Source of the DNA: a virus
Taxonomy: Duplodnaviria; Caudoviricetes
IMG/VR virus record: IMGVR_UViG_3300007754_000852
Strand: one strand, 5' to 3'
Length of the DNA stretch: 64,000 nt
In this document: positions 26,254 to 28,967 of the stretch, piece by piece
Layout of the letters: every line of letters starts with the position of its first letter
Numbering within the stretch: the stretch's first letter is position 1
Translations under genes and position numbers: made by a program
The notes under the pieces: model-generated
What the model saw: only the letters and a program-made list of their open reading frames with translations
Told to the model about the DNA's origin: nothing
Databases searched by the model: none

Positions 26254-26751
26254 TTAATCCTCTGGATCAACAATTAAAACGTCTTCAGATAGAGATTTCA
26301 TCTCTTCATACGACTCTAAGTCAATGCTAGCTTCATCTATGCTGAATTGTTTTACCATCGCTATCTCAAGAATGTCATCGACATACTGGCTATATTCTGT
26401 GTTTCTCATGATATCGCAAAATTCATTTTTTCTAAATTTTTTATCTATGACGATCTCACCTGTCTTTACATCTGTTACACTCATGGTCTTCCATCCACCT
26501 GTGCCTGCTAGCAAGATCTCCTTTCCATTAACAGTCTCAGGCCCGTGCTTTCTCAAAAGATCAAAAATTTGCTCGTGCTCTTTAATTCCCACACCAAAGT
26601 GAATCTCAAAATTTATTTTTCTAAATGGAGGGGCAACCTTATTTTTAATTGTCTTTGCAGACACATGAATTCCGATGACATCATCACCATCCTTTATCTG
26701 CTGTCCAGCTCCTAGCTTTATTCTAGTTGAAGCATGAAAAGGTATTGCTCT
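26254..26751 (-). CDS. recA: RecA C-terminal exon (3' exon of the recA-C cistron)
   Basis: Frame is open from 26751: RAIPFHASTRIKLGAGQQIKDGDDVIGIHVSAKTIKNKVAPPFRK, the RecA ALKFYASVRL...KNKVAPPF region. 498 nt, in frame to the stop. Confidence 0.9.
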   Translation of the reverse strand, partial: RAIPFHASTRIKLGAGQQIKDGDDVIGIHVSAKTIKNKVAPPFRKINFEIHFGVGIKEHEQIFDLLRKHGPETVNGKEILLAGTGGWKTMSVTDVKTGEIVIDKKFRKNEFCDIMRNTEYSQYVDDILEIAMVKQFSIDEASIDLESYEEMKSLSEDVLIVDPED

Positions 26752-27859
26752 CTTGCTAATCTACTACTTTCGTAGCAGTATGGACTATATCTTCAAAAAT
26801 TTTATTGTGTGAAATAATTTTTAGTTCGCTTTCCCAATATCTTATAACTCTAAATCCGCTTTCTTCGATTACACTTGTTTTCTTTTTATCATATTCCCAT
26901 ATTTCTTTTGCAAGCAGTTTCTTTCCACCAATTAAATCTTCAGAAGAAAACTTAGATGGATTTGCATGCCAATAATCACCATCGATCTCAACAATGGTAT
27001 TATACTTGGGAATATAAAAATCACAAACATATCTTTTTACAGATTTTTGAGTTTCATATTGAATATTAATCGCAACTAAAATACTAGCAAACATTTGTTC
27101 AGGCTTTGTATTCTTAGAACATGATGGCAATATATTTTTGCTATGCCAGTTCTCCTGACGCTTGTCTGCTTCTTCAACACCATATCTAATTACCCATCTT
27201 TCATAATTTGACTTTTTCATCCAGTCAGTCACACCTTTCTTTCCAATAAACAATCGTGGAAAGCTTTCTGGTGATTCACTAATCTTTTTCTTCATTAGTT
27301 TTGACTGTGATTCTCTATACTCTTTGCTTTGAGTGGCTTTACGACAGCTTTTCGCCTTTCTTTCTCGTATTTCTTTTGTCCCGTAAACTTTATCTGCCAT
27401 TTTTTGACAGTTTTGCCTATTTTCTTCAGAATTTCGCCAATCAGAAAATCTATCAAAATTACCCATTATTGATTCTGGAAATTTTGATTTGTAGTCGGTT
27501 GTTGTCATATTATGTTTTTTAAGATGAGTATTTGTTATGGCCTTGAAGGTTTTACCGCATACTTCACACTTGTATTTTTGTCCCGCGCTCATAGGTGTTT
27601 TCTCCTTACATGTATAAATATTATGAAACGGTAAAGCTTTACCATAAAATTTATTTCTTTGTAAGGTTAATAACACTAGTCTCTGAACCTTTGACCTGTC
27701 ACCAGGAAACTTGGCTGCTGATTACCCAATCCTACTTCTTTTTGACATTCACGCTCGCAATTACTCGCCACGTTGTAGTGAAGTCGGCTCTTAGGGCGTC
27801 CCAGACAATTCACGGGATGAATTTGCATTTTATACTCGTGCTTGGGAGGCAAGCATTTC
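26752..27859 (-). mobile_element. Group I self-splicing intron (1108 nt) in recA
   Basis: P AATTGTCTGGGAC (27798-27810), Q AATCAGCAGCCAAG (27710-27723), R GGTTCAGAGACTA (27677-27689) and S AAGATATAGTCC (26782-26793). P9 is CTGCTAC-GAAA-GTAGTAG. The 5' exon ends in U and the intron ends in G. Removal restores TPGG|RAIPF in frame. Confidence 0.93.
26756..27592 (-). CDS. Intron-encoded EDxHD/Vsr-like (DUF559-type) homing endonuclease with N-terminal Zn finger
   Basis: ATG 27592 with GGAGAA SD. Motifs CEVCGK...HLKKH, KPEQ, VCDFYIP, VEIDGDYWH, YDKKK and VIRYWESE. Lies between the R and S elements, and its 3' end runs through S and P9. Confidence 0.85.
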   Translation of the reverse strand: MSAGQKYKCEVCGKTFKAITNTHLKKHNMTTTDYKSKFPESIMGNFDRFSDWRNSEENRQNCQKMADKVYGTKEIRERKAKSCRKATQSKEYRESQSKLMKKKISESPESFPRLFIGKKGVTDWMKKSNYERWVIRYGVEEADKRQENWHSKNILPSCSKNTKPEQMFASILVAINIQYETQKSVKRYVCDFYIPKYNTIVEIDGDYWHANPSKFSSEDLIGGKKLLAKEIWEYDKKKTSVIEESGFRVIRYWESELKIISHNKIFEDIVHTATKVVD

Positions 27860-28222
27860 ACCACCCGGAGTTGTGTTGTGATTAATATGGCCATTAGCAA
27901 TATAAGCATTTCCATCTGGAACTGAAACATCTACTACATTCATTTTTCCTTGTAGTTGTTTTGCATCAGGATTGTCTTTTAGCTTCGTCCACTCTCCGTC
28001 GACAAGTGTTCTATGAACTGACGTTGCATTTAAATCACCAAGCATATACGATGTATCCACTGCTGGCTTCACTACGAAATTAGTCATTGGCTTAAAGCCA
28101 TCTGGACCTTCAATCATAGTACCAACATCGGAAAGATCATATTCACAAGGTGTTTCGAAATCATCAATCCCTAAAATACTTGCGTATTCAGAAAAAGTCA
28201 TCTCTCTTTCAATTTGTGCCAT
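27860..28222 (-). CDS. recA: Split-intein C fragment (116 aa, ends HN) plus RecA TTPGG; 5' exon of the recA-C cistron
   Basis: AAGGAGA SD and ATG 28222. IEGPDGF, ATSVHRT (block B TxxH), NVVDVSV...NGHINHN|T (blocks F/G). 363 nt, frame-preserving up to the splice site. Confidence 0.9.
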
Positions 28223-28967
28223 TATTATCTCCTTTGGCGTTATATTCACGGAACCTCTCCGCGAAAAGTGAGTTTTCGTCGTAACGAATTTTAATTTTTG
28301 TTGTTTCTGGGTTTACGCAATCTGGATCTCCATAGAGAACACCTATCTTTGTTCTGACCTGATTTAATATAACAAACAGCACATTTTGATTTGCAATCAC
28401 ACCTGTGATCTTTCTCATTCCTTTTGAAATTGCTCGTGCTTGAAGGCCTATTGATTCTTTATCATAGTCACCCAGAAGTTCTGCCTTTGGAGAAGAAGCA
28501 GCAACAGAATCCCACACAATAGTAACAGGAATGTCTTTATTCATTGCCTTTGCTTTCATTATTGTTGATTCAGCAATTGACAAAACCTCTTCAGTACAAT
28601 GAGTGTCAACATATACAAATCGTTTTGATACATCAACTCCAAGCATTCCTAGATTTTCAACACTTGTTGCATTCTCTGTGTCAATATACACAACAATACC
28701 GCCCATCTTTTGAGTCGATGCAGCAATCTGTGTAGCAATATGTGACTTACCGATTGATGGCGGCCCAAATATCTCTATGATCCTCCCCTCAGGGATGCCA
28801 CCGTCTCGTCTATTTGAGCATATATAGTCTAAAAGCCTTGAGCCCGTAGAGATCCATCTCTTGACATGAGTTGGTGACTCATCACATGAAAGATTATAAG
28901 CGACTCTAGAGCCATGCTCCTTGTTGAGGGCACTTATGAGGTCAGATGTAAAGTCTTGTTTTGACAT
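28209..28967 (-). CDS. recA: RecA N-terminal fragment (216 aa) fused to a 36-aa split-intein N fragment
   Basis: Walker A GPPSIGKS, VWDSVAA, IGLQARAISKGMRK and NQVRTKIGVLYGDPD|CVNPETTKIKIR, then a stop. Confidence 0.92.
   Translation of the reverse strand: MSKQDFTSDLISALNKEHGSRVAYNLSCDESPTHVKRWISTGSRLLDYICSNRRDGGIPEGRIIEIFGPPSIGKSHIATQIAASTQKMGGIVVYIDTENATSVENLGMLGVDVSKRFVYVDTHCTEEVLSIAESTIMKAKAMNKDIPVTIVWDSVAASSPKAELLGDYDKESIGLQARAISKGMRKITGVIANQNVLFVILNQVRTKIGVLYGDPDCVNPETTKIKIRYDENSLFAERFREYNAKGDNNGTN

Follow-up and report, generated by a model that had tools for sequence, protein, structure and literature searches.

Selfish elements at the RecA loop site are not new. Inteins at this site and group I introns in recA have each been described (PMC3239194, PMC2677866), as a first-pass annotation of the DNA studied here, made by a model from the letters and open reading frames (ORFs) alone, had already noted. 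Dassa et al. 2009 gave the earliest description of the Vsr-like endonuclease family and set out a model that foresees endonuclease loss leaving a bare split intein (PMC2677866). The family's later name, EDxHD, comes from I-Bth0305I, an enzyme located in the recA intron of Bacillus phage 0305phi8-36 that cuts the FGDP-coding sequence of the L2 loop (PMC3239194). Here we analyse recA in a 64,000-nucleotide (nt) stretch of an uncultured marine phage genome (Duplodnaviria; Caudoviricetes; IMG/VR record IMGVR_UViG_3300007754_000852), hereafter the window. This gene very probably holds two independent self-splicing parasites, an atypically split mini-intein and, 15 nt downstream, a group I intron, whose splicing would join the coding pieces into a 386-amino-acid RecA. 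We infer the splicing chemistry, the endonuclease's target and the direction of transfer from sequence. All features of the locus lie on the minus strand:

28320..28967, minus strand: recA piece 1 (N-extein, RecA residues 1-216), with the Walker A motif GPPSIGKS and the C-terminal end ...VLYGDPD.
28209..28319, minus strand: putative intein N-piece (IntN), 36 amino acids from Cys1, block A only, with its TGA stop at 28211-28209.
28229..28234, minus strand: Shine-Dalgarno sequence AAGGAG of the intein C-piece ORF, with a 6-nt spacer to the ATG at 28222-28220.
27875..28222, minus strand: putative intein C-piece (IntC), 116 amino acids with its own ATG; block B TSVH, block F VVDVSVP and block G HINHN.
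27860..27874, minus strand: five-codon micro-exon TTPGG (RecA residues 217-221); Thr+1 is the C-extein nucleophile and the last 7 nt, GGGUGGU, form P1.
26752..27859, minus strand: group I intron, 1108 nt, recognized from a truncated, below-threshold RF00028 match, covariation and intron-less alleles that fix its boundaries.
27830..27832, minus strand: in-frame TAA that stops the unspliced ORF2 frame nine codons into the intron.
26756..27592, minus strand: homing endonuclease gene within the intron, 278 amino acids, with an N-terminal C2H2-like zinc finger and a C-terminal Vsr/DUF559 nuclease domain.
26254..26751, minus strand: recA piece 3 (exon 3), RecA residues 222-386 and stop, RAIPFHAS...KNKVAPPF...

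The reading of this locus as an interrupted but complete recA starts from its reassembly. ORF1 (28967-28209) encodes 252 amino acids; its RecA portion ends at D216 (codon 28322-28320), and Cys1 (codon 28319-28317) is followed by 35 further residues before the TGA. ORF2, which carries the C-piece, overlaps the end of ORF1 by 14 nt in a different frame, and its C-piece terminates in ...NGHINHN (to 27875), with TTPGG next. Exon 3 lacks any start codon ahead of the conserved RAIPFHAS: the upstream in-frame codons read TAG ATT AGC AAG, and the first in-frame start candidate is a GTG 29 codons downstream. Joined conceptually, the three pieces give 386 amino acids with zero internal stops. This product aligns end to end with the uninterrupted RecA of L022 (L-numbers denote recA loci on related metagenomic phage contigs), with 82.8% identity over 384 residues, and the junction peptide LYGDPD-TTPGG-RAIPFHAS is encoded identically by the uninterrupted alleles L097 and L099. 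Piece 1 matches Pfam RecA (3.6e-43) and the PHROG UvsX-like recombinase (1.6e-50); ORF1 covers positions 7-202 of the Pfam RecA profile and exon 3 covers 206-261.

The first-pass annotation had predicted 216, 36 and 116 residues for the first three parts, then five codons, a RecA of ~386 amino acids and an RNA junction at 27860/26751. Every one of these figures is correct, the coordinates of all features were confirmed, and the match of anatomy and reassembly to the prediction is far beyond chance. Its central proposal, a recA in three coding pieces brought about by one split intein and one group I intron 15 nt downstream, is backed by comparative, RNA-structure and fold evidence, presented below.

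We propose that the locus would be transcribed as one RNA, from which the intron would splice itself out. Guanosine would attack after U27860, which forms a U.G pair in P1 with the guide GCCUCCC; the terminal G at 26752 would be released and GGUGGU joined to AGAGCA, giving the predicted spliced RNA junction ...CCGGGTGGT|AGAGCAATACC. ORF1 and the intron-freed, extended ORF2 would both be translated, and the two intein pieces would associate as a HINT fold and trans-splice, forming a D216-T217 bond and a 386-amino-acid RecA. On unspliced RNA, ribosomes would halt at the UAA nine codons into the intron, a stop whose alignment column is shared by every intron variant. In co-infected cells the endonuclease presumably cleaves empty recA alleles, with repair copying the intron, and the endonuclease-less intein, 15 nt away, could ride along with it.

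Between GDPD and TTPGG, in the region of the RecA L2 DNA-binding loop, lies what sequence motifs and a predicted fold identify as a 152-residue class 1 mini-intein. The class 1 signature is present (Cys1, block B TSVH, VVDxSVP, terminal HN and Thr+1), and an alignment of 23 homologues, the most distant of them 39% identical to its first sequence, shows no variation in VVD, NHN or the block B His; at least 90% of these homologues keep TTPGG. Because empty alleles read GDPxTTPGG without a gap, the element is an in-frame insertion. Contiguous, single-ORF versions of the intein occur in L011/L012 (148 amino acids) and L021 (165 amino acids), and the first 36-40 residues of the L011 and L021 versions align with the window N-piece. 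In alignment A1 the L011 intein and the window C-piece are 71% identical, and an AlphaFold2 model of the L011 intein reached a predicted local distance difference test (pLDDT) score of 94.1 and a predicted template modelling (pTM) score of 0.88; its lowest-confidence stretch, residues ~28-40, coincides with the split point. All top 50 Foldseek matches of this model in the PDB are inteins or HINT domains, with the atypically split VidaL intein in first place (6vgv, E 9.9e-5, TM 0.60). A complex prediction of ORF1 residues 203-252 with the C-piece scored 0.83, one unrelated-protein control scored 0.64, and the result is counted neither for nor against the reading.

One PHROG family touches on the same subject. 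In phrog_9666 (779 positions, 'unknown function') the N-part of RecA matches positions 21-68 and the C-part positions 657-704, and the family is probably a phage RecA with a large inserted intein.

The N-piece is 36 amino acids long and the split falls between blocks A and B, so that the window intein belongs with those called 'atypically split'. C-pieces encoded as stand-alone ORFs fall into 29 clusters (45-100% identity), and a search among longer proteins returned only two clusters of contiguous RecA-intein and two of C-piece plus RecA-C. Were the intein truly contiguous, an indel from sequencing or assembly would account for the frame break at 28209-28222, or programmed frameshifting or readthrough would bridge it. 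Consistent with this, the junction region measures, between conserved flanks, 43 nt in the window and 42 nt in L011, a net +1, and no stop interrupts the C-piece frame for ~30 codons upstream of the ATG. Yet the window region recurs at 100% identity in four independent contigs from different samples, there is no homopolymer at the break, and the window sequence has neither a slippery site nor a correctly spaced stimulator. Relatives at 45-89% identity are also split, in three architectures: the 14-nt overlap in another frame (window, L003, L004), a TAA two bases before the ATG (L005-L010), and an in-frame TAA (L013-L018), with a TTG start in L019. A Shine-Dalgarno-like motif and a start codon stand at the same place in every split relative, and one recoding mechanism cannot fit three architectures. 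Since identical sequence recurs and junction designs differ, neither an assembly indel nor a single recoding mechanism suffices. An indel was one of the outcomes that the first-pass annotation had named as refuting it; with four identical independent contigs and at least three stop/Shine-Dalgarno/start designs in relatives that refutation fails, and we hold a contiguous intein to be highly improbable.

Some distant stand-alone C-pieces (P0025 and P0027-P0032; alignment A1, 45-53% identity) stop 1-3 codons past TTPGG, and their read-through residues differ (WN, KH, WFC, K, LN, WY). Their sequences suggest another intron or interruption at the same TPGG| site in these lineages.

The second element of the proposed double interruption, the intron, shows a group I core that an ORF cuts in two. 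Rfam searches of the whole window at gathering score and of 2.8 kb at E<=10 gave no intron match, and a 301-nt search matched RF00028 at 27860-27600, from the predicted splice site onward (29.9 bits, E 5e-6, model positions 1-222, 3'-truncated). The match is weak and truncated because the 837-nt endonuclease ORF splits the core; where the ORF is missing, the intron reaches 79.2 bits (L003) and 70.9 bits (L004) over model positions 1-253, with a gathering score of 50. In P1, the micro-exon GGGUGGU pairs with the guide GCCUCCC (27850-27844), and the U27860.G splice-site wobble is invariant in 8 intron variants. Further elements are P3 (27817-27811 with 27587-27581), P7 (27681-27677 with 26787-26783), the P9 hairpin (26778-26761) and the terminal G at 26752. 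The 5' strand of P7 lies inside GUUCAGAGACUA (27688-27677) and its 3' strand inside AAGAUAUAGUCC (26793-26782).

Covariation supports this structure. In an alignment of eight introns (window plus seven loci, ORF removed), changes on both sides that keep the pairing occur in P3, P4, P5, P5a, P6a, P8, P9 and P10. Double-sided changes number one pair in P3, two in P4, one in P5, three in P5a, one in P6a, two in P8 and six in P9, and P10 has one compensatory change, between L013 and L014. P1 and P7 (GACUA/UAGUC) are invariant across the eight, and all intron copies have the terminal G that in the window, as G26752, precedes exon 3. Intron-less L019 reads ACAACTCCGGGTGGT|ATGGCAATACC and the same flanks surround the 1096-nt intron of L013; such uninterrupted flanks fix the intron boundaries exactly. 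By blastn, the P3-P6 region is 72-77% identical to other phage sequences, including the Twort nrdE intron carrying I-TwoI, in which the matched stretch closely precedes the ribosome-binding site of I-TwoI.

These data bear on whether recA is simply decaying here, its pieces being relics that no longer give an intact RecA. Such a gene would fit three breaks in one coding sequence, the uninterrupted recA of most related phages, and the decay of the element itself seen in introns that have lost their endonuclease gene (L003, L004). Decay is nonetheless a very unlikely explanation: all three extein pieces lack stops, and joining them yields, with no gap, a RecA sharing 83% identity with intact ones, the catalytic residues of the intein are invariant, the intron helices are kept by compensatory substitutions, and the arrangement persists across alleles whose exteins have diverged by 25-45%.

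The intron ORF lies in the P8 region. It matches Pfam DUF559 (39.1 bits, cut-off 20.6) and Vsr (33.5 bits, cut-off 27), contains the nuclease motif (V)EIDGDYWH, and matches E. coli Vsr (1cw0, E 1.9e-4) as well as PHROG homing endonuclease families; phage homologues are annotated 'group I intron-associated VSR homing endonuclease'. By profiles and motif it is a Vsr-like (EDxHD-type) endonuclease, its signature placed except for the final Asp. Gene and ribozyme share sequence at both ends. The first codons overlap P3' (CGCGGGA, 27587-27581, just past the start codon), and the last codons overlap P8', P7' and P9; P8', the P7 3' strand and the P9 hairpin fall in these last codons and just beyond the stop.

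Between P7 and P3' (27677-27590) stands an extra hairpin resembling P7.1/P7.2 of subgroup IA introns. Its 3' strand contains the Shine-Dalgarno sequence of the endonuclease gene (27607-27602), whose start codon is 2 nt from P3'. The Shine-Dalgarno stem covaries among relatives (CCUUACA/UGUAAGG, CCUUGCA/UGCAAGG and CUUUUUAU/AUAAAAAG). Sequestration of the Shine-Dalgarno sequence in a covarying stem suggests that translation of the endonuclease and folding of the ribozyme are mutually exclusive, with translation repressed in the folded ribozyme.

The ORF-less introns of L003 (3194-3515) and L004 (4364-4685) are 322 nt long, and the endonuclease gene survives in them as its opening codons (AGCGCGGGACAAAA...) and its closing codons (...CACACAATAGTATTTTTGAAGATATAGTCC). 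With remnants of both gene ends in place, an internal deletion therefore removed the gene, which is what the late phase of a homing cycle would predict.

A further feature of the intron's 3' end varies among alleles. In most relatives (L003, L005-L010, L013-L018, L104, L108, L109 and L113) the intron ends in an ATG that shares the frame of exon 3; in L014 the endonuclease stop is followed by this ATG (TAATATG|ATG), and the window reads AAG at 26752-26754. The ATG might be left over from an earlier state, reflect a P9.0/P10 constraint, or serve as a reserve start codon from which a separate C-terminal fragment is made.

If exon 3 were translated on its own, the pieces might work without covalent joining, as a non-covalent RecA assembly like that of endonuclease-fragmented ribonucleotide reductase genes. 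The in-frame ATG that ends the intron in most relatives speaks for this, and functional genes-in-pieces arising from endonuclease insertion are known (PMC3045599). The window itself, with AAG at this place, has no in-frame start before RAIPFHAS. Such an arrangement would have no need of a complete intein active site or of a complete ribozyme core maintained by covariation, and the break points lie inside the L2 DNA-binding loop. We consider it extremely improbable.

RNA and protein splicing of two parasitic elements, the reading we prefer, also makes sense of the allelic states of recA in related phages. Figures for empty alleles cover the closest 80 of at least 594 recA loci of the lineage. 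All 80 are uninterrupted, have neither element and read GDP(D/T)TTPGG(K/R/M)AIPFH; empty alleles are the majority among related contigs. Intein-only alleles exist in contiguous (L011/L012, L021) and split (L019/L020) form. Intron-only alleles with the endonuclease gene are found in L108 and L109, and a third intron-only locus, L110, is cut by the contig end. Both elements are present in the window, L003-L010, L013, L111 and L113. The empty, intein-only and intron-only states that the first-pass annotation had thought worth seeking were thus all found, together with alleles that carry both.

That annotation had also suggested that the double interruption might put recombination under a two-step post-transcriptional gate. 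Such an adaptive gate would come on top of the parasitic explanation without replacing it, and it draws on architecture only, together with the conditional protein splicing documented for some inteins (for example PMC6195587). The suggestion finds no support, and the polymorphism pattern is that of selfish elements: with 80 of 80 closest loci lacking both and every partial state present, the elements are selfish and not a conserved regulatory device. Moreover, some intron copies contain the homing endonuclease gene and others have lost it, which resembles a homing cycle, and we rate a regulatory role as decidedly unlikely.

Parasitic spread, the better account, raises the question of whether the two elements move together. 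L003 and L004 share a block that is 97-100% identical from ~20 nt inside the intein to intron P9, in exteins and flanks that are 55-80% identical. A near-identical block in otherwise diverged recA genes indicates that intein and intron were exchanged as one cassette. The window intein is nearest to L003/L004 and the window intron nearest to L008, so the elements have also recombined apart. The idea that a single endonuclease drives both by co-conversion therefore holds in part: the common block of L003/L004 favours it, and the occurrence of each element alone and their different closest relatives speak against it.

All intron-bearing alleles keep ...CCGGGTGGT in the micro-exon, whereas the site (18 nt, micro-exon and 18 nt) has 63 sequence variants among the 80 empty alleles. 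Judged from these sequences, a fixed micro-exon fits a P1 constraint, co-conversion, or both. Six empty alleles (L045, L047, L048, L052, L054 and L055) have Ile or Val at the intein +1 position (GDPD-ITPGG, GDPD-VTPGG); such alleles could not sustain splicing of a window-type intein and may resist its fixation.

The most heavily occupied loci have recA in four coding pieces, with three elements within 12 codons (L014 582-4884, and also L015-L018). Here a second, atypically split intein sits at KIG|T, with an 18-amino-acid N-piece (CVHPDT...) and a C-piece ending in SHN; a free-standing gene for a 343-amino-acid Vsr-like endonuclease lies between its halves, making this a true 'fractured gene'. 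In L014 there follow a 7-residue extein (TMYGDPT), a window-type split intein, TTPGG and an intron with its own endonuclease gene. The middle ORF thus reads IntC'-TMYGDPT-IntN, with Thr at +1 in place of the Val of empty alleles. L104 combines the second intein with the intron and has no window-type intein.

Taken further, the L2 region of recA in an abundant marine phage lineage can be pictured as an arena whose three sites (KxG|T, GDPx|T and TPGG|x) lie within 12 codons, and in which endonuclease-less, atypically split mini-inteins persist by hitch-hiking on the endonuclease of the adjacent intron, as one cassette. We offer this picture tentatively, its chances being somewhat below even. If it is true, living populations preserve a record of how inteins become split, in the contiguous, bare-split and endonuclease-fractured states that coexist there.

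Several observations weigh against the double-parasite reading as a whole. For the intron, the 29.9 bits fall below the RF00028 gathering score of 50 and came only from the 301-nt search, and a scan of metagenome contigs for a spliced or intron-less junction of the window type returned only the known L019/L020-type intron-less genomic alleles. For the intein, Pfam Intein_splicing (PF14890) gives only E 0.04-0.1 (13-14 bits, cut-off 35.8) and covers blocks F/G only; a phmmer search of the contiguous intein against PDB sequences returned only chance lipoprotein matches; and Thr+1 is a less strong nucleophile than Cys or Ser. The intein call draws on motifs, position and the predicted fold of a ~70-71%-identical contiguous relative (L011). 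As for joint mobility, intein-only and intron-only alleles mean that the elements are not obligately linked, and the window's exon flanks contain no detectable co-conversion tract and no local rise in identity near the insertion sites. These flanks are nearer to empty alleles (~83% identity) than to other occupied ones (69-77%).

The neighbourhood of the locus is a phage replication module: ribonucleotide reductase large subunit, DnaB-like helicase, 5'-3' exonuclease, recA, a gp32-like single-stranded DNA-binding protein and a family A polymerase domain, with a major head protein gene further along the window. Searched by tblastn with the intein C-piece, a set of 50,697 isolated or deposited phage genomes yielded zero matches, and the best RecA match among these genomes is below 43% identity; the phage therefore has no close cultured relative there. 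A stand-alone ORF of 393 amino acids (32069-33250, minus strand) has a match to family A DNA polymerase that is confined to the polymerase's C-terminal part (Pfam DNA_pol_A 110-359; PHROG DNA polymerase 971-1212 of 1445). The ORFs beside it, of 990 (33277-36249) and 191 (31475-32050) amino acids, have no family matches. This polymerase, too, may be encoded in separate pieces.

The locus matters in several ways. Its product would need both cis RNA splicing and protein trans-splicing, with the two elements only five codons apart. Most interest lies in the population of coexisting allelic states: empty, intein-only (contiguous and split), intron-only, double and triple-occupied alleles occur side by side in public metagenomes, a natural experiment that could show neighbouring selfish elements aiding or hindering each other's spread and could test the Dassa model of split-intein origin. 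For protein engineering, the lineage offers natural atypically split inteins with N-pieces of 36, 28 and (in relatives) 18 amino acids, along with contiguous relatives; such inteins are sought for semisynthesis. Standard annotation was expected to label this recA a pseudogene; gene callers applied to the public data instead give four separate ORFs, and pipelines that treat these as unrelated would overlook an intact recombinase.

Every component of the locus belongs to a known kind: split inteins in marine phages, atypical split sites, recA group I introns with EDxHD endonucleases, and inteins in the RecA L2 loop (PMC3239194). A split RecA intein was not found in the literature searched, nor was a gene that needs both protein trans-splicing and RNA cis-splicing with its elements 15 nt apart. 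Similar to the fractured genes of marine phage metagenomes (Dassa et al. 2009, PMC2677866), the window has a phage DNA-metabolism gene broken by a split intein, with adjacent, co-oriented halves, and a Vsr-like (later 'EDxHD') endonuclease family is involved. In contrast to those genes, the halves overlap by 14 nt with no endonuclease gene between them, the endonuclease resides in the neighbouring group I intron, and the split site is atypical, with a short N-piece; recA, in the passages of that paper covered here, is an intron host and not a fractured host (PMC2677866).

Among atypically split inteins (AceL-TerL, GOS-TerL, VidaL and PolB16 OarG; PMC10189870), the natural split likewise lies between blocks A and B, the N-piece is 15-37 amino acids (36 in the window), the C-piece is long, and the origin is phage or metagenomic. 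The window differs from them in its host protein, RecA, and from several in its Cys1/Thr+1 pair; it has no detectable sequence similarity to them, it has close contiguous relatives (L011, L021), and its trans-splicing is predicted. The introns of Bacillus phage 0305phi8-36 (I-Bth0305I) and of B. anthracis recA are likewise group I introns of the recA L2 loop with a Vsr-like EDxHD endonuclease (PMC3239194, PMC2677866), and in both systems the endonuclease ORF reuses sequence of the intron core. The Bacillus target TTCGGTGATCCAAA (FGDP), with insertion immediately downstream (Taylor 2011), would correspond approximately to the window's intein position, roughly five codons upstream of its intron. 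The Bacillus ORF is in the P1 loop and the window ORF in P8; the Bacillus endonuclease has NUMODs at its N-terminus where the window enzyme has a zinc finger; and the Bacillus recA intron has no accompanying intein.

Bacillus subtilis SPbeta bnrdE and the ribonucleotide reductase of Trichodesmium are single genes that need both RNA and protein splicing, as would the window recA. Their inteins are contiguous (cis-splicing) and the elements are far apart, whereas the window intein is split and lies 15 nt from the intron. The Twort nrdE intron with I-TwoI (AF485080) is also a phage intron and shares ~77% identity over ~105 nt of the P3-P6 core; it differs in its host gene, its HNH endonuclease and the position of its ORF after P6. 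Finally, the neighbouring inteins of haloarchaeal MCM are likewise selfish elements at close sites in one gene, and there the homing of one intein has an effect on its neighbour (PMC10643990). The archaeal pairs consist of two inteins; here a phage gene pairs an intein with an intron, and in L014 two inteins with an intron.

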